Shown here: piece by piece, positions 1 through 8,702 of the stretch
Layout: each line of letters starts with the position of its first letter
Position numbering within the stretch: the first letter of the stretch is position 1
Virus record (IMG/VR): IMGVR_UViG_2648501318_000014
Length of the DNA: 8,702 nt
Reading direction: 5' to 3' (one strand)
From: a virus
Taxonomy: Duplodnaviria; Heunggongvirae; Uroviricota; Caudoviricetes
Translations under genes and position numbers: made by a program
Notes under the pieces: model-generated
The model's input: only the letters and a program-made list of their open reading frames with translations
What the model was told of the DNA's origin: nothing
Database searches by the model: none

Positions 1-150
1 CTCAACGGCATCGTCAAAATTATCAAAGCGCAGAGCTTCTGCGTCTTCTTCGTCAAAGAAGTCATCGTCGTGAAGCTTCACGACATAGCGGGGAAGTTTG
101 CTTCTTTGAGGGGCAGGTTTTCGTTTACGGGGTTTAGCTGAACGGGCCAT
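1..150 (-). CDS. Hypothetical protein, N-terminal 50 codons only (gene runs off the window's left edge); divergent from the tail operon
   Basis: ATG at 150-148 on the minus strand with an SD-like AGGT about 6 nt upstream; frame stays open to position 1. Translation MARSAKPRKRKPAPQRSKLPRYVVKLHDDDFFDEEDAEALRFDNFDDAVE has a basic then acidic composition typical of a real protein. The complementary + frame is also open to 138, so strand choice is uncertain. Confidence 0.4.
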   Translation of the reverse strand, partial: MARSAKPRKRKPAPQRSKLPRYVVKLHDDDFFDEEDAEALRFDNFDDAVE

Positions 151-168
151 ATAACTACCTGAAAGACA

Positions 169-1041
169 ATGACATTATCTTTTTTTATAACGGTAATTCC
201 AGACCATGACAAGCCGCAGCCGCCAGGCTGCCTACTCGGTGTTAAACCGCGCATTCTCGGCGTGCCGGGGCACGATAATAAAGCCGTTGCTACTGAGTTG
301 CTGGGCGTGGCGCAAAGCCTGCGTGGGTTTGCTTACCTGTCAGCGTATGGCTGCAAGACGGTGCAGGAGGCGATCACTTACCGTGAAAACTTCAGTCAGC
401 GTGAAGGGATGCTGATCTGGCCTGACTTTACTGGCTGGGACACGGTGCTGAATGCCGACGCAACGGCATATGCCACCGCCCGTGCGCTTGGTCTGCGTGC
501 CAAAATTGATGAGCAGACAGGGTGGCACAAAAGCCTGTCCAACGTGGGCGTGAACGGTGTCACCGGAATTTCTGCTGATGTGTTCTGGGATCTGCAGGAC
601 CCGGCAACTGATGCGGGACTGCTTAACCAGAACGATGTTACCACACTTATCCGCAAAGACGGCTTTCGCTTCTGGGGTTCCCGCTGCCTGAGTGATGACC
701 CACTCTTTGCCTTCGAAAACTACACCCGCACGGCGCAGGTGCTGATGGACACGATGGCAGAAGCGCCAATGTGGGCGGTCGACAAACCGCTGAATCCGTC
801 GCTGGCCCGCGACATTATCGAAGGTATCCGCGCCAAAATGCGCAGCCTGATCAGTCAGGGCTATCTCATTGGTGGCGATTGCTGGCTGGATGAGTCGGTG
901 AACGACAAAGACACTCTGAAAGCTGGAAAACTCACCATCGACTACGACTACACACCAGTGCCGCCACTTGAAAACCTGATGCTGCGTCAGCGCATCACCG
1001 ATCAGTACCTGGTGAATTTCTCCAGCCAGGTCAGCGCGTAA
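169..1041 (+). CDS. FI: Phage contractile tail sheath protein (P2 FI family), apparently 5'-truncated: only the C-terminal ~268 residues are FI-like
   Basis: From [11 protein letters not shown] (about nt 232) to the stop, the translation follows my recollection of P2 FI closely ([70 protein letters not shown]). The in-frame stop TGA at 160-162 and a non-FI leader ([23 protein letters not shown]) show the first ~128 residues of a 396-aa FI are not encoded here. Confidence 0.8.
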
Positions 1042-1050
1042 GGGGACAAC

Positions 1051-1566
1051 ATGGCTTTACCACGCAAATTAAAACACCTGAACCTGTTTAACGACGGGAA
1101 CAACTGGCAGGGGATCGTTGAGTCGCTGACGCTGCCGAAATTCACCCGCAAATATGAGAAGTATCGCGGTGGCGGAATGCCGGGTGCAGTGGATGTGGAT
1201 CTGGGGCTGGATGATAGTGCGCTGGACACAGAATTTTCCATTGGTGGTACTGAACTGCTGCTGTTTAAGCAGATGGGCAAAGCCACGGTGGATGGTATCC
1301 AGTTGCGCTTTACCGGCTCTATTCAGCGTGACGATACCGGGGAAGTGCAGGCCGTGGAGCTTGTGGTGCGTGGACGTCACAAAGAAGTGGATTCCGGCGA
1401 GTGGAAGACGGGCGAAAGCAACACCACCAAAGTGACCAGTACCAACAGCTACGCGAAGCTGACTATCAATGGTGAGGTGCTCTATGAAGTGGACCTTATC
1501 AACATGGTGGAAATTGTGGACGGCGTGGACCTGATGGAAGCGCACCGCAACGCCCTCGGCCTCTGA
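1051..1566 (+). CDS. FII: Phage tail tube protein (P2 FII family)
   Basis: 171-aa ORF starting 10 nt after the FI stop; N-terminus MALPRKLKHLNLFNDGNNWQGIVESLTLPK and length match P2 FII as I recall it; order FI-FII-E-T-U-D is conserved. Confidence 0.9.
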   Translation: MALPRKLKHLNLFNDGNNWQGIVESLTLPKFTRKYEKYRGGGMPGAVDVDLGLDDSALDTEFSIGGTELLLFKQMGKATVDGIQLRFTGSIQRDDTGEVQAVELVVRGRHKEVDSGEWKTGESNTTKVTSTNSYAKLTINGEVLYEVDLINMVEIVDGVDLMEAHRNALGL

Positions 1567-1577
1567 TGTATCTGAAC

Positions 1578-1595
1578 GGCGCGGGATTCCGCGCC
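1578..1595 (+). other. GC-rich stem-loop in the FII-E intergenic region (7-bp stem ggcgcgg/ccgcgcc, 4-nt loop), no U-tract; possible attenuator or RNA-stability element
   Basis: Perfect inverted repeat read directly in the sequence; not followed by a T-run, so not a classic intrinsic terminator. Confidence 0.25.
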
Positions 1596-1620
1596 AGAAC
1601 CCAATTTACAGGACAGAAAA

Positions 1621-1923
1621 ATGAGCGATAAGCAGACTGAAAAGACCATTCAACTGGATACCCCTATCAAGCGCGGTAAAACGGAAATCACCGAAATTGT
1701 GCTGCGTAAACCGCAGTCCGGTGCACTGCGCGGTACACGCCTGCAGGCTATTATGGATATGGATGTGAACGCGATGATGACCGTGATCCCCCGCATCTCC
1801 AGCCCGGCACTGACTGCACAGGAAATTGCAGAGATGGACCCGGCAGATCTCACCGCTATGTCGGTTGAGGTTGTCACTTTTTTGTTGAAGAAGTCGGTAC
1901 TTGCCGGTTTACCGACAGCCTGA
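1621..1923 (+). CDS. E: Tail assembly chaperone E (P2 gpE family)
   Basis: 100-aa ORF immediately upstream of the tape measure gene; contains the canonical slippery heptamer near its 3' end; position and size fit gpE. Confidence 0.85.
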   Translation: MSDKQTEKTIQLDTPIKRGKTEITEIVLRKPQSGALRGTRLQAIMDMDVNAMMTVIPRISSPALTAQEIAEMDPADLTAMSVEVVTFLLKKSVLAGLPTA

Positions 1924-2057
1924 CGGTTGACGATCTGGTGGCTGATATCGCCACCATCTTTCACTGGCCGCCATCCGTTACTGACGTTATGCCGCTGACC
2001 GAAGTGCTGGAATGGCGGTATAAAGCGATTCAGAGAAGCGGGGCCAACGATGAGTGA
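1621..2057 (+). CDS. E+E': Tail assembly chaperone E+E', made by programmed -1 ribosomal frameshift at 1878-1884 (join 1621..1884, 1884..2057; about 145 aa)
   Basis: T TTT TTG sits in the X XXY YYZ register of the E frame; the -1 frame is open from 1884 to TGA at 2055-2057 and overlaps the T start, as in the P2 E/E' and lambda G/GT paradigm. Predicted extension: VEEVGTCRFTDSLTVDDLVADIATIFHWPPSVTDVMPLTEVLEWRYKAIQRSGANDE. Confidence 0.7.
1878..1884 (+). promoter_or_regulatory. -1 programmed frameshift slippery heptamer TTTTTTG
   Basis: Heptamer is in the correct register relative to E codons act|ttt|ttg. Confidence 0.7.
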
Positions 2058-5000
2058 TAATAACCTGCGCCTGCAGGTCATTCTTAATGCGGTTGACAAA
2101 CTCACCCGCCCATTCCGTGCTGCACAGGCCAGTTCGAAAGAGCTGGCTGGCGCAATTCAGAATACCCGAAACAGCCTCAAAGAACTGAATAAGCAGGCTG
2201 GCAGAATTGATGAATTTCGCAAGACGCGCTCGCAACTAGCCATAACAGCCAACAACCTGAACGCAGCCCGCGAAGAGGCGGCAAAACTCGCCACACAATT
2301 TGCTGCCACTAACAGGCCAACCGCCGCGCAGGCAAAGTTATTCAGTCAGGCCAAAACACGAGTACAGGAACTTCAGCAGACCTATAACGGCTTGTTGGGG
2401 GCGGTCCAGAGACAACGTCAGGCACTTAAAGAATCAGGGATTGATACCAGACAACTCAGTAGTGCCCAGCGAGAACTTAAGAAAAATGCTGAAGAAACAA
2501 GGCAGGCACTGGAGGGCCAGCAAAAAGCACTTAAACGTCTGGGTGAACAACAGGCACGGATGAACGCTGCCAGAGAACAATACTCAAGACGGCTTGAAGT
2601 GCGCGATCGCATCGCAGGAGCCGGAGCCACTACCACGGCTGCAGGGCTGGCAATGGGGGCGCCAGTGATGGCGGCAGTAAAAAGCTATACCAGCATGGAA
2701 GATGCCATGAAAGGTGTGGCAAAGCAGGTCAATGGTCTGCGTGACGATAATGGCAACCGCACTGCACGTTTTTATGAAATGCAGGATGCCATCAAGGCTG
2801 CCAGCGAACAGTTGCCGATGGAAAACGGTGCGGTGGACTTCGCTGCACTGGTTGAAGGTGGTGCGCGCATGAACGTCGCAAACCCTGACGACAGCTGGGA
2901 AGACCAGAAACGTGACCTGCTGGCCTTCGCCAGTACGGCAGCAAAGGCGGCAACAGCCTTTGAGCTGCCAGCGGATGAACTGTCAGAAAGTCTGGGGAAA
3001 ATCGCCCAGCTCTACAAAATACCAACCCGCAATATTGAACAGCTCGGCGATGCGCTGAACTATCTGGATGATAACGCCATGTCGAAAGGGGCGGACATCA
3101 TTGATGTGATGCAACGTCTGGGCGGTGTGGCTGACCGTCTGGATTATCGTAAAGCGGCGGTGCTGGGTTCCACCTTCCTGACACTGGGCGCTGCGCCGGA
3201 GGTTGCAGCCAGTGCAGCAAACGCGATGGTGCGTGAATTGTCCATTGCCACCATGCAGAGCAAGAGTTTCTTTGAAGGGATGAATCTGCTGAAACTCAAT
3301 CCTGAAGTGATTGAAAAGCAGATGACGAAGGATGCGATGGGAACTATCCAGCGTGTGCTGGAGAAGGTGAACGCACTGCCGCAGGACAAGCGTCTGTCTG
3401 CCATGACCATGTTGTTTGGTAAAGAGTTTGGCGATGACGCGGCGAAACTGGCAAACAACCTGCCGGAACTGCAGCGTCAGTTAAAACTGACAGCGGGCAA
3501 TGATGCGCTCGGCTCCATGCAGAAAGAATCCGACATCAATAAGGACTCACTTTCTGCTCAGTGGTTACTGGTCAAAACCGGAGCGCAGAACACCTTCAGC
3601 AGCCTGGGCGAAACGCTGCGCCAGCCGCTGATGGATATTCTGTACACGGTGAAAAGCATCACGGGGGCGTTGCGCCGCTGGGTGGAAGCTAACCCGGAAC
3701 TGACAGGCACACTGATGAAAGTAGCGGCTGTTGTGGCTGCGGTTACCGTAGGCCTCGGCACCTTAGTGGTGGCGCTGGCTGCAGTGCTGGGGCCGCTGGC
3801 AGTCATCCGTCTGGGATTCTCTGTGCTGGGTATCAAAACGTTACCTTCCGTTACGGCAGCAGTAACACGAACCAGCAGCGCGTTGTCCTGGTTAGCTGGC
3901 GCTCCACTGGCACTGCTGCGACGCGGGCTTGCTTCATCGGGCAACGCAGCGGGTTTACTTACTGCGCCGTTGTCGTCTTTGCGCCGCACGGCATCACTGA
4001 CGGGGAATGTCCTGAAAACTGTAGTAGGTGTGCCGGTTGCACTGTTGCGGTCTGGATTATCCGGTTTACGTGCTGTTGCTGTGATGTTTATGAATCCACT
4101 GGCAGCACTACGCGGTGGACTGGCTGCCGCAGGCGCGGTGCTGCGAGTACTGGCATCCGGTCCGCTGGCGATGCTGCGCGTTGCCCTGTATGCCATATCG
4201 GGTCTGTTAGGTGCTCTGCTCAGTCCGATAGGTCTTGTGGTTACTGCACTGGCGGGCGTGGCGCTGGTTGTCTGGAAATACTGGCAACCCATCACCGCAT
4301 TTCTCGCTGGTGTGGTGGAAGGATTCAAAGCGGCGGCAGGTCCCATCAGTGCAGCATTCGAACCACTTAAGCCTGTGTTTCAGTGGATTGGCGACAAAGT
4401 GCAGGCGTTGTGGGGCTGGTTTACTGATCTGCTGACGCCCGTTAAGTCGACCTCTGCCGAACTGCAGAGCGCAGCGGCAATGGGGCGACGATTCGGGGAG
4501 GCACTGGCGGAAGGGCTGAATATGGTCATGCATCCGCTGGACTCCCTGAAATCCGGCGTTTCCTGGTTGCTGGAGAAACTCGGCATTGTCAGTAAAGAGG
4601 CTGCAAAGGCGAAATTGCCGGAAAGAGTGACGCGTCAGCAACCTGCGACGGTGAATGCAGACGGTAAAGTGATGATGCCATCGGGTGGTTTTCCGTCATG
4701 GGGATATGGCTTTGCGGGGATGTATGACAGCGGCGGCTATATCCCGCGCGGGCAGTTTGGCATCGTCGGTGAAAACGGGCCGGAAATTGTTAACGGCCCG
4801 GCAAATGTGACCAGCCGGAGAAATACAGCTGCACTGGCTGCCGTTGTTGCCGGAATGATGGGCGTTGCTGCCGCGCCTGCAGAGCTTCCACCGTTGCATC
4901 CTTTGGCACTTCCCGCGAAAGGCGGCGAAGCGATGGTGAGTCGTGCAGCCACTGTGCCGCCCGTTCACCGGATTGAGGCACCGACGCAGATCATCATTCA

Positions 5001-5127
5001 GACGCAGCCAGGACAAAGTGCGCAGGATATTGCGCGGGAGGTGGCACGCCAGCTTGATGAACGTGAACGCAGGCTGAAGGCAAAAGCCAGGAGTAACTAC
5101 AGCGATCAGGGGGGATACGACGCATGA
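2050..5127 (+). CDS. T: Tail tape measure protein (P2 gpT family), 1025 aa
   Basis: Long ORF after E/E'; coiled-coil-like Q/A/K/R-rich N-terminal half, long Ala/Leu/Gly-rich hydrophobic central region, Gly-rich C-terminal part (GENGPEIVNGP); position matches tape measure. Confidence 0.9.
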   Translation: MSDNNLRLQVILNAVDKLTRPFRAAQASSKELAGAIQNTRNSLKELNKQAGRIDEFRKTRSQLAITANNLNAAREEAAKLATQFAATNRPTAAQAKLFSQAKTRVQELQQTYNGLLGAVQRQRQALKESGIDTRQLSSAQRELKKNAEETRQALEGQQKALKRLGEQQARMNAAREQYSRRLEVRDRIAGAGATTTAAGLAMGAPVMAAVKSYTSMEDAMKGVAKQVNGLRDDNGNRTARFYEMQDAIKAASEQLPMENGAVDFAALVEGGARMNVANPDDSWEDQKRDLLAFASTAAKAATAFELPADELSESLGKIAQLYKIPTRNIEQLGDALNYLDDNAMSKGADIIDVMQRLGGVADRLDYRKAAVLGSTFLTLGAAPEVAASAANAMVRELSIATMQSKSFFEGMNLLKLNPEVIEKQMTKDAMGTIQRVLEKVNALPQDKRLSAMTMLFGKEFGDDAAKLANNLPELQRQLKLTAGNDALGSMQKESDINKDSLSAQWLLVKTGAQNTFSSLGETLRQPLMDILYTVKSITGALRRWVEANPELTGTLMKVAAVVAAVTVGLGTLVVALAAVLGPLAVIRLGFSVLGIKTLPSVTAAVTRTSSALSWLAGAPLALLRRGLASSGNAAGLLTAPLSSLRRTASLTGNVLKTVVGVPVALLRSGLSGLRAVAVMFMNPLAALRGGLAAAGAVLRVLASGPLAMLRVALYAISGLLGALLSPIGLVVTALAGVALVVWKYWQPITAFLAGVVEGFKAAAGPISAAFEPLKPVFQWIGDKVQALWGWFTDLLTPVKSTSAELQSAAAMGRRFGEALAEGLNMVMHPLDSLKSGVSWLLEKLGIVSKEAAKAKLPERVTRQQPATVNADGKVMMPSGGFPSWGYGFAGMYDSGGYIPRGQFGIVGENGPEIVNGPANVTSRRNTAALAAVVAGMMGVAAAPAELPPLHPLALPAKGGEAMVSRAATVPPVHRIEAPTQIIIQTQPGQSAQDIAREVARQLDERERRLKAKARSNYSDQGGYDA
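3901..4221 (+). repeat. Five degenerate in-frame tandem repeats (period 63-66 nt) inside the tape measure gene, consensus about P-L-A-x-L-R-x-G-L
   Basis: Repeats APLALLRRGL / APLSSLRRTASL / VPVALLRSGL / NPLAALRGGL / GPLAMLRVAL; the proline codons fall at 3904, 3967, 4033, 4096 and 4162. Confidence 0.5.
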
Positions 5128-5609
5128 TGATGGTGCTGGGATTGTACGTGTTTATGCTGCGCACCGTTCCGTATCAGGAACTGCAGTATCAACGCAGCTG
5201 GCGACATGCGGCAAACAGCCGGGTAAACCGTCGTCCGTCCACGCAGTTTCTGGGACCGGACAACGACATGCTGACGCTTTCTGGTGTTCTTATGCCGGAG
5301 ATAACGGGCGGCAGGCTGTCGTTGCTGGCTCTGGAGCAGATGGCAGAACAGGGAAAAGCATGGCCCCTGATTGAAGGCAGCGGCACGATTTACGGCATGT
5401 ATGTGATTGAGGGACTGAATCTGACTAAAACGGAGTTTTTCCGCGACGGTATGCCGCGCCGGATTGAGTTCACCCTGTCGCTCAAACGGGTGGATGAATC
5501 CCTGTCCGATATGTTCGGTGATCTCAGTACGCAGCTGAATAATCTGCAGGACACGGCAACATCTGCCTTAAGTGATATCAGTAAAACGGTGGGAGGGCTG
5601 CTGTCGTGA
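5124..5609 (+). CDS. U: Tail protein U (P2 gpU family)
   Basis: 161-aa ORF whose ATG overlaps the T stop (ATGA at 5124-5127); size and position match gpU. Confidence 0.85.
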   Translation: MMMVLGLYVFMLRTVPYQELQYQRSWRHAANSRVNRRPSTQFLGPDNDMLTLSGVLMPEITGGRLSLLALEQMAEQGKAWPLIEGSGTIYGMYVIEGLNLTKTEFFRDGMPRRIEFTLSLKRVDESLSDMFGDLSTQLNNLQDTATSALSDISKTVGGLLS

Positions 5610-6706
5610 ATTTCAGCTCTGAACTGCTTAACAAAGGCAACAAAACTCCCGCATTCAGCATCAGTATTGAGGGCAGGGATATCAACACTGTGCTGGATAA
5701 CCGCCTGATGAGTTTGACTCTGACGGACAATCGGGGCTTTGAAGCGGACCAGCTTGATCTGGAGCTGGACGACGCCGACGGAAAAATCGTGCTGCCGCGC
5801 CGTGGTGCGGTCATTACGCTGGCGCTGGGCTGGAAGGGGCAGCCGCTTTTCCCTAAAGGGGCATTCACGGTGGACGAGATTGAACACACTGGCGCACCGG
5901 ACCGCCTGACTATCCGGGCGCGAAGTGCTGATTTTCGTGAAACGCTGAATACCCGCCGTGAAAAGTCGTGGCACAAGACCACCGTTGGGGAAGTGGTGAA
6001 GGAAATAGCCTCGCGGCATAAGCTGAAGATGGCACTGGGTAAAGACCTGTCGGATAAGCCCGTGGAACATATAGACCAGACCAATGAGAGTGACGGCAGT
6101 TTTCTGATGCGGCTGGCGCGCCAGTACGGTGCTATTGCGTCGGTGAAAAATGGCAATCTGTTATTCATCCGGCAGGGACAGGGTAAAAGCGCCAGCGGTA
6201 AACCACTGCCGGTGATCACTATCACACGCAAGGACGGCGACAGTCACCGCTTTACCCTGGCAGATCGCGGAGCCTACACGGGCGTAATTGCCAGCTGGTT
6301 GCATACCCGCGAACCCGCGAAGAAAGAAAGCACTACGGTGAAGCGTAAGCGCAGAACGAAGAATCAGAAGAAAGAGCCGGAAGCGAAGCAGGGCGATTAC
6401 CTGGTGGGTACGGATGAAAACGTGCTGGTACTCAATCGCACCTATGCCAATCGGAGTAACGCCGAACGGGCAGCGAAAATGCAGTGGGAACGCCTGCAAC
6501 GCGGCGTTGCGTCATTCTCGCTACAACTGGCGGAAGGGCGGGCAGATCTCTACACGGAAATGCCAGTGAAAGTCAGTGGCTTTAAACAGCCGATAGATGA
6601 TGCGGAATGGACCATTACGACTCTGACACATACCGTCAGCCCGGATAATGGTTTTACGACCAGTCTTGAGCTTGAAGTGAAGGTTGATGATCTCGAAATG
6701 GAATGA
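5606..6706 (+). CDS. D: Tail protein D (P2 gpD, late control D family)
   Basis: 366-aa ORF with GTG start overlapping the U stop (GTGA at 5606-5609); position immediately upstream of ogr as in P2. Confidence 0.85.
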   Translation: MNFSSELLNKGNKTPAFSISIEGRDINTVLDNRLMSLTLTDNRGFEADQLDLELDDADGKIVLPRRGAVITLALGWKGQPLFPKGAFTVDEIEHTGAPDRLTIRARSADFRETLNTRREKSWHKTTVGEVVKEIASRHKLKMALGKDLSDKPVEHIDQTNESDGSFLMRLARQYGAIASVKNGNLLFIRQGQGKSASGKPLPVITITRKDGDSHRFTLADRGAYTGVIASWLHTREPAKKESTTVKRKRRTKNQKKEPEAKQGDYLVGTDENVLVLNRTYANRSNAERAAKMQWERLQRGVASFSLQLAEGRADLYTEMPVKVSGFKQPIDDAEWTITTLTHTVSPDNGFTTSLELEVKVDDLEME

Positions 6707-6743
6707 TTCTTTACAATGGAGAACTTTTAAGTTTGAAAAATGG

Positions 6744-6763
6744 AATAATGCGATATCATTATT
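6744..6763. promoter_or_regulatory. Dyad-symmetric element aataatgcgatatcattatt upstream of ogr; possible operator or promoter-associated site
   Basis: 7-nt arms aataatg / cattatt around a GATATC core, about 35-50 nt upstream of the ogr start; function not established. Confidence 0.2.
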
Positions 6764-6796
6764 GTGAATTTAGCAAAAATGGGGAGAACTCGAAAA

Positions 6797-7015
6797 ATGA
6801 TGATTTGCCCACTGTGTGGAAGTGCCGCCCATACTCGCAGCAGTTTTCAGGTATCTTCATTGACCAAAGAGCGTTACAACCAGTGCCAGAACATTAACTG
6901 CAGCCATACTTTTGTTACCCATGAAACTTTTGTTCGTTCGATTGCAACGCCAAAAGAGTCAAATCCGGTTCAGCCGCATCCTCATAAATTTAAACAGGTG
7001 GGTTTGCCGATTTAA
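6797..7015 (+). CDS. ogr: Ogr/Delta-type C4 zinc-finger late transcription activator, 72 aa
   Basis: MMICPLCGSAAHTRSS...KERYNQCQNINCSHTF matches the CxxC...CxxxxC Ogr zinc finger; SD GGGGAG about 10 nt upstream of the ATG at 6797; 72 aa as in P2 Ogr. The ORF-track start at 6764 adds a non-homologous extension and is less likely. Confidence 0.85.
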   Translation: MMICPLCGSAAHTRSSFQVSSLTKERYNQCQNINCSHTFVTHETFVRSIATPKESNPVQPHPHKFKQVGLPI

Positions 7016-7078
7016 ATGGCGACATAACTACATGATTTAAAACTATACTTTTCTATAAGTTGAGGTTAAATTAACAAT

Positions 7079-7256
7079 GCCTGACGTTAGCGGGGATTTA
7101 TCCCCACTCCGTAGATATGTAGTTTGTCGCTTTGCGACTGCGGACCGATTACCTGATTGCCATGTAATCGGACGCCGACTTGTTAAGCTTTCTGGGCTAA
7201 CTGGTTGTTATTTTTTATTTAGTTAGGGCCATGCGCTTGCGCTAAGAGACGTCAGG
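7079..7256 (+). ncRNA. Candidate structured noncoding RNA upstream of the RT operon (retron msr/msd-like), bounded by an imperfect inverted repeat
   Basis: Left arm gcctgacgttagcg (7079-7092) pairs with right arm cgctaa-gaga-cgtcagg (7240-7256): 13 bp with a 4-nt bulge. TTAGCG followed by a G-run sits just inside the left arm. Internal hairpins at 7092-7105, 7126-7138 and 7145-7171. No ORF. An AT-rich promoter-like stretch lies upstream and an SD follows the right arm. Confidence 0.3.
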
Positions 7257-7276
7257 TATCTATGGAGGAACAAGTT

Positions 7277-7450
7277 ATGGATACAAACGAACTTGGCTTA
7301 GTTAAGGCGCGTGTTGAACTGATCACCGCTATGCTCAAATGCGCAACCGCGTTTGTTGGCTTAGTTGGTGCGGTTTACGCCGTTCTTAACATGGCCTTCA
7401 ACTACAGCAATTTAACTCATGACAATAGAAGTTCAAAGGTGGGAAGATAA
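7277..7450 (+). CDS. Small hypothetical membrane protein (57 aa, one predicted TM helix); candidate effector or partner of the RT
   Basis: SD GGAGG at 7264-7268, 8 nt before the ATG at 7277; product MDTNELGLVKARVELITAMLKCATAFVGLVGAVYAVLNMAFNYSNLTHDNRSSKVGR has a ~25-residue hydrophobic core; its 3' end overlaps the RT start by 32 nt. Confidence 0.4.
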   Translation: MDTNELGLVKARVELITAMLKCATAFVGLVGAVYAVLNMAFNYSNLTHDNRSSKVGR

Positions 7451-8192
7451 ATTTGAGATTAAGCCCGGGGTTTGGGTTTATGTCCCAAGCGTTGAGGCAC
7501 GTAAAGTCGGAGGGAAGATACTTCAGGCTGTCAGAAACAAGTGGATTCCGCCACTCTATTTTTACCATCTAAGAACTGGTGGGCATCTTAAAGCTGCCAG
7601 ATTACACTTAAAAAGTGATTTTTTTGCCGTTGTTGATATTAAACAATTTTTTCAGTCAACGAGCCGTAGTCGTATCACCCGTGATCTAAAGAGCTACTTC
7701 ACCTATTCTCAAGCGCGGGAAATCTCAACATTTTCAACTGTAAGAAACTTGTCCCATAGTCCACATAAGCATGTCCTCCCTTTTGGTTTTGTTCAATCTC
7801 CAATACTTGCAACCCTCTGCTTAGATAAAAGTTATTTTGGTAGCTTACTACGCCGATTGAACAAACATCATGATCTCAAGCTAAGTGTGTTTATGGATGA
7901 TGTGATCATCTCGTCAAACGATTTGGCCCAATTACAAGCGGCTTACGACGAAGCACTAGTGGCAATGCGCAAATCTGGTTATCAAGCCAACATGAGTAAA
8001 ACTCAGGCACCATCGTCAAAGATTAGCGTGTTTAATTTAACTTTGAGTAAGGGAGTTATGAAAGTCACATCTCAGAAAATGAGTGACTTCCTGATTGATT
8101 TCTATTCAAGCAATTATGAGCCGCACAGAATAGGGGTCAAAAACTACGTCGAAGCTGTTAATCCAGGGCAAGCGAAACTCTTTAAGTTGTAA
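7419..8192 (+). CDS. Compact reverse transcriptase (257 aa) with retron-type motifs
   Basis: Motif 1/2-like YVPSVEARKVGGKIL; NAxxH-like AARLH; motif A FAVVDIKQFFQS (Asp codon 7635-7637); motif B LPFGFVQSPILATL; motif C VFMDDVII (Asp-Asp codons 7896-7901); KVTS in the position of the retron VTG motif. Frame is closed by TAA at 7413-7415 just upstream, so no longer N-terminus is possible. Confidence 0.85.
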   Translation: MTIEVQRWEDKFEIKPGVWVYVPSVEARKVGGKILQAVRNKWIPPLYFYHLRTGGHLKAARLHLKSDFFAVVDIKQFFQSTSRSRITRDLKSYFTYSQAREISTFSTVRNLSHSPHKHVLPFGFVQSPILATLCLDKSYFGSLLRRLNKHHDLKLSVFMDDVIISSNDLAQLQAAYDEALVAMRKSGYQANMSKTQAPSSKISVFNLTLSKGVMKVTSQKMSDFLIDFYSSNYEPHRIGVKNYVEAVNPGQAKLFKL

Positions 8193-8261
8193 TTGCGATC
8201 GCATGTAGTAGCAACTGGGCTTGACTGAATGCCTGCCGCCATTTTGCCGCCACTACCAAAG

Positions 8262-8289
8262 AAAAAAGGGCTACGCTTTCACGTAACCC
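8262..8289 (-). terminator. Intrinsic terminator of ssrA (minus strand); may also terminate the convergent RT operon
   Basis: On the minus strand: 8-bp stem GGGUUACG/CGUAGCCC (one G-U pair), 6-nt loop, then U6 (plus-strand aaaaaa 8262-8267), starting 12 nt after the ssrA 3' end. On the plus strand the same hairpin is followed by a T-rich stretch. Confidence 0.45.
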
Positions 8290-8300
8290 ATTGATTTATT

Positions 8301-8663
8301 TGGTGGAGCTGGCGGGAGTTGAACCCGCGTCCGAAATTCCTACATCCTCGGTACTACATGCTTAGTCAGTCTTTACATTCGCTTGCCAGCTGCGGACGGA
8401 CACGCCACTAACAAACTAGCCTGATTAAGTTTTAACGCTTCAACCCCAGGCAGGGCTTCCACGCGATCTCTTTTGGGTTTGACCTCTCTTGATCCCCGTC
8501 CTAAGAGCGGAGGCTAGGGAGAGAGGGCTCTAAGCAGGTTATTAAGCTGCTAAAGCGTAGTTTTCGTCGTTTGCGACTATTTTTTGCGGCTTTTTACGAG
8601 GCCAACCGCCCCTCGGCATGCACCTTGGGTTTCGCAAATCCCGTCGAATCCAGAATCAGCCCC
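8301..8663 (-). ncRNA. ssrA: tmRNA (transfer-messenger RNA, SsrA), complete 363-nt gene
   Basis: Reverse complement begins GGGGCTGATTCTGGATTCGACGGG and ends GGTTCAACTCCCGCCAGCTCCACCA; the tag reading frame GCAAACGACGAAAACTACGCTTTAGCAGCTTAA (ANDENYALAA-stop) is at 8542-8574. Matches enterobacterial ssrA as I recall it. Confidence 0.95.
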
Positions 8664-8677
8664 AATGTGTAAAGGTA

Positions 8678-8683
8678 AGTATA
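8678..8683 (-). promoter_or_regulatory. Putative -10 hexamer (TATACT on the minus strand) of the ssrA promoter
   Basis: TATACT lies 14 nt upstream of the mature tmRNA 5' end, consistent with a short processed leader; the -35 region would be at or beyond the window edge. Confidence 0.3.
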
Positions 8684-8702
8684 CCAGATTTATGAGCGCC
8701 AT

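Follow-up and report, generated by a model that had tools for sequence, protein, structure and literature searches.

Retrons of type VI, among them Vpa2, Eco12 and Sen3, are organized as a non-coding RNA (ncRNA) followed by the genes of a small protein (SP), a helix-turn-helix (HTH) regulator and a reverse transcriptase (RT), with an HTH of the Cro/C1 type between SP and RT in 78% of the entries. For Retron-Vpa2 a hybrid RNA was reported that joins the msr-msd part to the message of a translationally repressed toxic SP of 55 amino acids (aa), the ribosome-binding site and AUG of which are held in stem-loops; its multicopy single-stranded DNA (msDNA) is undetectable at rest, accumulates upon the phage triggers lambda Red and Gam, and derepresses SP translation, also in trans, and its HTH represses reverse transcription (10.1101/2025.10.22.683967). 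An architecture of ncRNA, peptide and RT is found in none of the 13 retron types (PMC7736814). Here we describe this architecture in a stretch of 8,702 nucleotides (nt) from a virus of the Caudoviricetes (IMG/VR record IMGVR_UViG_2648501318_000014; hereafter "the window"), where a leader RNA, a small open reading frame (ORF) for a peptide of 57 aa and an ORF for an RT of 257 aa form a cassette at positions 7077-8192.

On balance we lean towards reading this locus as a compact, self-contained cassette of the retron type which is carried as prophage cargo and acts as a switch resembling that of type VI, with the helical peptide as its effector; it would produce msDNA and take part in defense. 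Leader RNA, peptide and RT are conserved and linked to each other, the RNA stems covary, and the Shine-Dalgarno (SD) sequence of the peptide ORF pairs with an anti-SD in the leader. The cassette is regarded as self-contained because no other gene is linked to it: among the flanking ORFs of at least 70 aa the largest cluster besides the peptide comprises 6 loci and neither a linked effector nor an HTH was found, and the window itself has only ogr upstream and ssrA downstream.

The RT ORF is bounded by an in-frame stop shortly upstream, and its product matches Pfam RVT_1 with an E-value of 2e-21 (77 bits against a cut-off of 29.6 bits). The polymerase motifs A, B and C, named in a first-pass annotation of the window, are present as DIKQFF (residues 73-78), FGFVQSP (122-128) and FMDD (158-161), and an alignment of 36 diverse relatives, reaching down to 30% identity, shows no variation at D73, Q126-S127-P128, D160 and D161. 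The same annotation had taken the segment AARLH (59-63) for the counterpart of the retron motif NAxxH, and in two profile alignments it indeed falls on NATPH of Ec86 and on NAEAH of a type VI RT. A59 and H63 are invariant among the 36 relatives, which gives a family motif A-x3-H in which the retron N is replaced by A; the A position of NAxxH is taken by A, L, I or V, and H63 is aligned to the retron H. KVTS (215-218), on the other hand, could not be kept as the counterpart of the retron VTG, as its columns vary in the family and VTG comes to lie on V204-F205-N206 in both alignments. F205 and N206 are invariant, so that these relatives lack the VTG glycine, for which the highest conservation of all residues was reported (PMC7736814), and have an invariant N in its place.

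A search of 5.8 billion proteins yielded 72 RT clusters, nearly all of 252-270 aa. Scanning 1.84 billion representatives with HMMER led to 519 matches at E <= 1e-3, 320 at <= 1e-10 and 158 at <= 1e-30, the 150 best representatives having RTs of approximately 245-270 aa. When one genome per species was scanned with a degenerate pattern for the LPFGFVQSPILA motif, 104 loci were found where about one is expected by chance; nearly all encode relatives of the RT, from Alpha-, Beta- and Gammaproteobacteria, and their RT ORFs measure 242-287 aa with in-frame stops shortly upstream. The lengths of homologues had been set beforehand as a check, and with these values it is not the case that all relatives are longer and the copy in the window is truncated. 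The family (hereafter the mini-RT family) comprises at least 158 clusters at 50% identity (E <= 1e-30) from three proteobacterial classes, on prophages as well as plasmids.

The remark that the RT is unusually small holds insofar as its 257 aa are real and conserved, but the deviation is less extreme than supposed, the PADLOC models of type VI and type X RTs having 279 and 272 positions. These comparisons make small size a trait that defines this large family, which is apparently still unnamed, and the RT described here is neither truncated nor degenerate, because the catalytic residues are invariant and the length is constant in hundreds of relatives. Of the two options left by the first reading, a minimal or a degenerate retron RT, the former is thus retained, the retron models also being the best matches (see below), and the latter is dropped.

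The second part of the cassette is the leader. The 183-nt region folds with z-scores of -3.7 and -3.0, and it was aligned with 28 relatives from Gamma- and Betaproteobacteria, across which the element order a1-H1-anti-SD-H2-H3-motif-H4-a2-SD (Table 1) is kept. Pairing is found in 94% of the aligned cells compared to 28-41% with slid partners, and none of 500 shuffles reaches the observed covariation. In the a1/a2 stem five out of six aligned pairs are changed on both sides, and the GCGC/GCGC stem of H4 is 99% paired and nearly invariant. If the arms are defined only by the neighboring conserved motifs, the a1:a2 duplex has an energy of -10.5 kcal/mol for cognate compared to -7.2 kcal/mol for non-cognate arms, and the observed mean is reached by none of 2000 permutations. 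In 47% of 64 loci an upstream partner of the a2 arm was detected at p <= 0.05, compared to 5% expected from dinucleotide shuffles. No Rfam family matches the leader.

The TAGC after a1 (7088-7091) and the TAAG two nt 5' of a2 (7243-7246) are both TAGG in the consensus, so that two boxes of the TAGG type lie opposite one another where the a1/a2 stem ends on its inner side. After a1 the context is UUAGC as in the msr of Ec86, where the G is the branch point; G7090 is a candidate for the branching G. The H3 region may serve as msd template for complementary DNA (cDNA), a role that fits because its length and sequence vary as expected of msd stems. In most relatives an extended -10 motif similar to TGnTAnnnT precedes a1 by 7-20 nt, which implies a transcription start at a1; the version in the window, TTAAAT, is weak, and a simple sigma-70 scan gave no plus-strand promoter upstream of a1. 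An ORF at 7077-7226 (49 aa), which starts at the ATG of a1, has no family matches and coincides with the ncRNA. It is probably spurious, since the conserved TAG boxes of the ncRNA are stops in relatives. Annotation pipelines could miscall it.

A further hint towards a switch arises from the pairing of the SD. Over a long range the anti-SD (7107-7118) pairs with the SD arm at 7256-7267, and in the relatives it is found in the same place, directly 5' of H2, with sequences that differ yet are complementary. Cognate anti-SD:SD pairs reach -13.4 kcal/mol compared to -8.3 kcal/mol for non-cognate ones (0 of 2000 permutations reach the observed mean), and a partner of the SD arm was identified at p <= 0.05 in 42% of the 64 loci (again with 5% expected from dinucleotide shuffles). 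The sequestration is concentrated in the gamma/beta subgroup, where the pairing covaries. In the window the a1/a2 and anti-SD:SD stems cross, leading to a pseudoknot or to alternative folds. A local hairpin at 7257-7282 (UAUCUAUG...GUUAUGGAUA), whose stem includes the AUG of the peptide and whose loop contains the SD, could form instead of the long-range pairing, which suggests at least two repressed conformations.

In the alpha-proteobacterial subgroup (loci L072, L028, L091, L012, L100, L052, L054, L065, L040, L092 and L005), the peptides of which end in SKVVNY, the a1/a2 stem is strong and covarying, e.g. TAGGCTGCGGCTC / GGGTTGCAGTTTG.

A homologous small ORF on the same strand abuts or overlaps the start of the RT in 76 of the 81 loci with enough upstream DNA. 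With their starts chosen by SD and ATG, the peptides share a basic N-terminus, a single hydrophobic or amphipathic helix which includes charged residues, and a conserved end (N/S)(M/K)(A/V)xNY in which N-Y is invariant. Their core up to NY comprises 31-54 aa (median 37 aa) and ends with LNMAFNY in the window; the tail past NY is not conserved and overlaps the RT start in another frame. AlphaFold predicts a single helix over residues 3-55, with a predicted local distance difference test (pLDDT) above 90 for residues 11-40, and the peptide is without a match in Pfam, PADLOC, NCBIfam or PHROG. The invariant Tyr is encoded by TAC in 21 and by TAT in 34 distinct sequences, and among the codons of the peptide the third positions are the most variable and the second positions fixed. 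This codon pattern is an argument for selection on the protein and not on the RNA.

The small ORF has a strong SD in 58 out of 64 loci and starts nearly always with ATG. The RT is without an SD in 60 out of 64 loci, its duplex energy being the same as at random positions, and in 60 out of 64 the two ORFs overlap. Because of these three features the translation of the RT is probably coupled to that of the small ORF. In at least four lineages, represented by L016 (a Kistimonas metagenome-assembled genome), P0019, P0036 and P0203, the NY peptide is even fused in frame to the N-terminus of the RT, and such fusions show a functional coupling of both. The Klebsiella form P0036, which stands for 173 sequences, was seen on at least 1000 contigs, and this frequency makes the fusion a common and presumably functional form.

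It was stated in the first-pass annotation that the protein has no room for an N-terminal extension. This is correct for the RT itself, in which approximately 45 N-terminal residues are absent compared to Ec86 and to gp44 of Burkholderia phage KS5 (the alignments begin at residue 59 of Ec86 and residue 47 of gp44), but the missing part may be supplied to some extent by the neighboring peptide, the core of which has a median of 37 aa. As the main rival reading one could propose that the peptide is not an effector and instead represents a detached N-terminal subunit or cofactor of the RT, or a leader ORF that delivers ribosomes; the output would then be an msDNA-RT complex acting with an unlinked partner of the host or phage, or in a role other than defense. 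We consider this rather unlikely. The recurrent in-frame fusion and the missing SD of the RT speak for it, the invariant NY and the charged helix residues suggest a specific interaction over generic membrane damage, and stand-alone cassettes of msr, msd and RT are known in other retron clades (PMC7736814). However, a pure leader ORF would not retain an invariant NY with synonymous variation over three proteobacterial classes, and fusions do not discriminate, as retron RTs also commonly carry effector domains in fusion (types I-C, VII-A1, XI and XII; PMC7736814). An SD hidden by a long-range anti-SD is moreover the pattern of toxic small proteins, the SP of type VI included, which favors the effector reading of the peptide.

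The question to which class the RT belongs was addressed by profile comparisons. The best PADLOC model for the RT is RT_VI with 63 bits; in the family the best RT_VI E-value is 1.9e-24, close to the values of the models I-B, IX and II-A. Retron RT models lead the PADLOC matches of all 36 members, and a Cas-associated RT model ranks among them. Compared with solved structures, the family profile matches Ec86 best (E 1.5e-12, RT residues 13-250 against Ec86 59-295), followed by 12 more retron entries (13 in all). In the model comparison that the first-pass annotation had proposed, retron models stand above those of Abi/DRT and group II RTs. For calibration we used KS5 gp44, for which RT_VI gives 260 bits and the second-best model 115, the partner gene reaching 117 bits on HTH_VI; in hhalign the family and gp44 share 20% identity (E 4e-11). 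The RT remains below every NCBIfam cut-off, with the retron, group II, TIR-RT and Drt3a models all far below. From these scores it would appear that the RT belongs to the retron or retron-like group, that no single type model fits it well, and that the mini-RT family belongs to none of the defined retron types and forms a separate, unnamed clade.

KS5 gp44/gp45 (L106, 545-1844, minus strand) is a textbook pair of type VI RT and HTH on another P2-like phage. In a 2010 paper it was described only as "RT and transcriptional regulator".

Two further RT classes were considered and set aside. A group II intron RT or maturase is contradicted by a TIGR04416 score of 23 bits against a cut-off of 300, and Rfam gave no intron RNA in 6500-8702. 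A diversity-generating retroelement would have a template/variable repeat pair and an Avd gene, but there is neither a direct repeat of at least 25 nt involving 7000-8300 nor an accessory gene near the RT.

More has to be said about a DRT-like system outside the retrons, in which the leader would template concatemeric cDNA with a toxic ORF (as in DRT2/Neo), a homopolymer, or DNA primed by Tyr. The altered signature residues, with VTG replaced by VFN and the N of NAxxH by A, are in agreement with such a system, and so is, for the version with protein priming, the invariant Tyr of the peptide immediately beside the RT. The solved CRISPR-associated RT domain 8bgj matches the family profile with an E-value of 8e-7, and a paper citing this entry reports that CRISPR-associated RTs prime DNA synthesis directly (PMC10415136). 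We nevertheless regard this explanation as improbable. The UG/Abi/DRT assignment was rejected, as RT_UG33 reaches 33 bits and Drt3a 17.6 bits against a cut-off of 200, far below the retron models, and extra domains are absent. The leader has the classical retron layout, with the a1/a2 stem and the facing TAGG boxes. A never-ending ORF of the Neo kind in the leader was likewise rejected: a frame without stops occurs between a1 and a2 in 34 of 56 loci, which is about chance, and the spans show no bias towards multiples of three.

That the RT is a truncated or decaying remnant, or that peptide and RT are a frameshifted RT of 310 aa, is hardly credible: their summed length of about 310 aa is typical of retron RTs and the ORFs overlap by 32 nt in different frames, but the layout, in which peptide and RT use separate frames, the peptide has a strong SD and an ATG, and stops precede the RT ORF, is repeated in 76 of 81 loci from three classes. 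No catalytic residue varies, 21 E. coli genomes and 13 Klebsiella prophage records carry the cassette with 99.6-100% identity, and this family-wide conservation effectively refutes the idea.

Among 5426 complete E. coli genomes, 21 contain the exact cassette, and each time the genes follow each other as D - ogr - hypothetical - RT; it adjoins ssrA in the one genome examined. In 13 records of P2-like prophages from Klebsiella pneumoniae it is located at the extreme right end, at 99.6% protein identity. Distant members reside on plasmids of Rhizobium, Agrobacterium, Pantoea and others, or adjoin integrases, MobA/MobL relaxases and IS66. Such a patchy and mobile distribution is as expected of accessory or defense cargo.

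If the cassette is compared to the type VI retrons, the similarities concern its order and its control. In both, the ncRNA directly precedes the ORF of a small helical hydrophobic protein, and a small RT comes last; in both, the ribosome-binding site of the small protein is sequestered by the ncRNA, here by the anti-SD:SD pairing of the gamma/beta subgroup. The SP of Vpa2 has 55 aa and a hydrophobic C-terminal helix, compared to the helical peptide of 57 aa in the window, RT_VI is the best PADLOC model, and both occur on prophages and mobile elements. The differences are that the cassette has no HTH gene, and also no room for one because the peptide ORF overlaps the RT ORF, that the RT scores far lower on RT_VI than KS5 gp44, that A-x3-H and VFN replace NAxxH and VTG, and that the peptide has a shorter core with its own invariant NY and an ORF to which RT translation is coupled.

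With Retron-Eco1 (Ec86) the cassette shares an RT homologous over nearly its whole length, a1/a2 repeats enclosing a structured RNA upstream, and the location on a P2-like prophage. In contrast to Ec86 the RT is about 60 aa shorter, without N-terminal extension or C-terminal tail; the cassette has no effector of the NDT type, ncRNA and RT are separated by a small ORF, an SD-sequestering element is present and the signatures are altered. Type IV retrons (Retron-Eco6/Ec48) likewise combine a retron with a small hydrophobic candidate effector of the membrane type; their effector has two transmembrane segments, whereas the peptide described here has one helix and is encoded upstream of the RT, and the listed matches include no RT model of type IV. 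In the mRNAs of type I toxin-antitoxin systems (the hok, tisB and zorO class) a small hydrophobic peptide is encoded and its SD is hidden by long-range pairing in the 5' untranslated region until the RNA is remodeled. The cassette resembles them in the small hydrophobic peptide and the hidden SD, and differs in that no antisense RNA is evident, that a leader of retron architecture is linked to an RT and that cDNA is proposed as the remodeler. The system is best filed as a retron-type system that acts like type VI with a distinct RT clade, its own micro-peptide and no HTH.

The mechanism which we propose for the type VI-like switch could be as follows. A single transcript from approximately 7077 would comprise the ncRNA and then the overlapping ORFs of peptide and RT. 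In the resting state the SD would be sequestered, leading to little peptide or RT. The RT would prime on the G after a1 (candidate 7090) and copy the msd-like region from H4 to H3 and onward. An accumulation of cDNA might be triggered if, for example, a phage blocks RecBCD or brings recombinases that bind single-stranded DNA, as reported for type VI retrons. The accumulated cDNA could titrate the anti-SD, or the anti-SD could be destroyed via RNase H, and the SD would open. As the anti-SD lies between the msr-like and the msd-like parts, cDNA synthesis reaching it would expose the SD, and an RNA-DNA hybrid persisting at the 3' end of the msDNA could have the same effect. The open SD would provide the means for translation of the peptide and, by translational coupling, of more RT; since the same SD would gate the RT, this might represent a positive-feedback switch in need of no HTH. 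The hydrophobic peptide would finally arrest the infected cell (abortive infection), by which the lysogen and its prophage could be shielded from competing phages.

One must keep in mind that several points weigh against this proposal. msDNA synthesis, toxicity of the peptide and a role in defense are properties which we infer for the mini-RT family, and known defense genes are not enriched among the neighbors sampled, where genes of mobile elements were seen. Without an HTH nothing obvious restrains reverse transcription. The RT lies, by its score of 63 compared to 260 bits, outside the family of the type VI model, and with altered NAxxH and VTG signatures priming and msr recognition may differ; a single-sequence AlphaFold model of the RT had a pLDDT of 32 and no usable fold. 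In the alpha-proteobacterial subgroup no SD sequestration could be detected, only a1/a2, so that sequestration cannot be the universal mechanism of the family and regulation in this branch must differ. Recurrent fusion, invariant NY, charged helix residues and the approximately 45 absent N-terminal residues fit a subunit of the RT at least as well as a membrane toxin.

A bolder proposal goes beyond the type VI-like switch, and we regard it as possible although doubtful: the cassette would be an unrecognized "type XIV", the smallest natural retron, composed only of the ncRNA, a micro-peptide (about 40 aa) and an RT (about 255 aa). These would form a self-amplifying, riboswitch-like circuit that flips the cell irreversibly upon stabilization of cDNA by a phage and does so without the HTH repressor needed by type VI retrons. 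In a more exotic variant the invariant Tyr of the peptide could serve as protein primer.

No description of the mini-RT family was found in open-access papers and preprints, so an earlier account elsewhere is possible. Keyword searches of two recent surveys of retron diversity did not turn it up, and the papers on the P2 hotspot, the E. coli W genome and Burkholderia phage KS5 do not describe it. If the proposal is confirmed, a widespread family has been missed by the classification into 13 retron types and by current defense-finder models, likely since a partner gene of 40-57 aa is rarely annotated. It would provide an independent, natural test, free of an HTH, of the idea that retron cDNA switches on toxin translation. 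The limit to which a retron RT can be reduced would become visible as well, and the junction of ogr and attR in P2-like prophages would join the cargo sites for anti-phage systems. An RT of 257 aa with an ncRNA of 183 nt is attractive for retron-based genome editing.

Table 1. Features of the cassette and of the adjoining prophage end, in window positions.
Feature	Position	Strand	Remarks
gpE region	1621-1923		
Tape measure gene	2050-5127		
gpU	5124-5609		
gpD	5606-6706		Pfam Phage_GPD
ogr/delta zinc-finger late activator	6797-7015	+	Pfam Ogr_Delta 6.7e-22; PGAP; last P2-type phage gene, left cargo border
Candidate -10 element TTAAAT	7066-7071	+	5 nt upstream of a1; weak, putative
Retron-like ncRNA (msr-msd-like leader), 183 nt	7077-7259	+	closed by the a1/a2 stem
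a1, 5' arm, ATGCCTGACGTT	7077-7088	+	pairs with 7248-7259; TAGC follows; consensus CCYGGCGaTAGGC
H1, variable hairpin, GGGGATTTATCCCC	7092-7105	+	inverted repeat, folds
anti-SD, CTCCGTAGATAT	7107-7118	+	complementary to the SD region of the peptide; inverted repeat
H2, conserved hairpin GTCGC-TTT-GCGAC	7126-7138	+	consensus GTCAC...GTGAT; 98% of cells paired, 2 double-sided pairs
H3, long stem-loop, variable sequence and length	7140-7207	+	folds; candidate msd template
GTTGGTT-like motif	~7219-7226	+	precedes H4
H4, near-invariant hairpin with TAGG-type box, CATGCGCTTGCGCTAAG	7230-7246	+	consensus CATGCGC...GCGCTAGG
a2, 3' arm of the closing stem, GACGTCAGGTAT	7248-7259	+	pairs with a1
SD arm, GTATCTATGGAGG	7256-7268	+	contains SD GGAGG 7264-7268; pairs with anti-SD; peptide AUG at 7277
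Small ORF, 57 aa	7277-7450	+	PGAP hypothetical protein WP_001384722; SD GGAGG 7264-7268; alternative upstream ATG 7262
Reverse transcriptase, 257 aa	7419-8192	+	32-nt overlap with the small ORF; lacks its own SD
ssrA (tmRNA)	8301-8663	-	ARAGORN; Rfam RF00023 296 bits; PGAP; attachment-site side, right cargo border

According to its gene content (Pfam, ARAGORN, Rfam, PGAP) the window represents the right end of a P2-like prophage, which is integrated at ssrA. A complete block of P2-type tail and late genes fills positions 1-7015 and comprises sheath, tube, gpE region, tape measure, gpU, gpD and ogr; the usual gpE/E' frameshift site of P2-type phages would presumably lie at about 1900-2050. The retron-like cassette of 1.15 kb is contained in an insert of approximately 1.2 kb between ogr and ssrA, and the G+C content, about 55% in the tail genes, drops to about 42% from approximately 6700 onward. 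In complete genomes smpB comes after ssrA.

Between the stop of the RT and the 3' end of ssrA only about 108 nt remain (8193-8300), within which the attR core of the prophage should be located. The sole terminator-like element past the RT is the terminator hairpin of ssrA (minus strand, 8289-8268), which may work in both directions. Sub-threshold Rfam matches to "tmRNA_permuted" were seen on the minus strand at 8123-8361 and 8542-8702; they overlap the true tmRNA and extend into the 3' end of the RT. They are most likely an artifact of similarity to ssrA, or possibly the trace of a duplicated att sequence.

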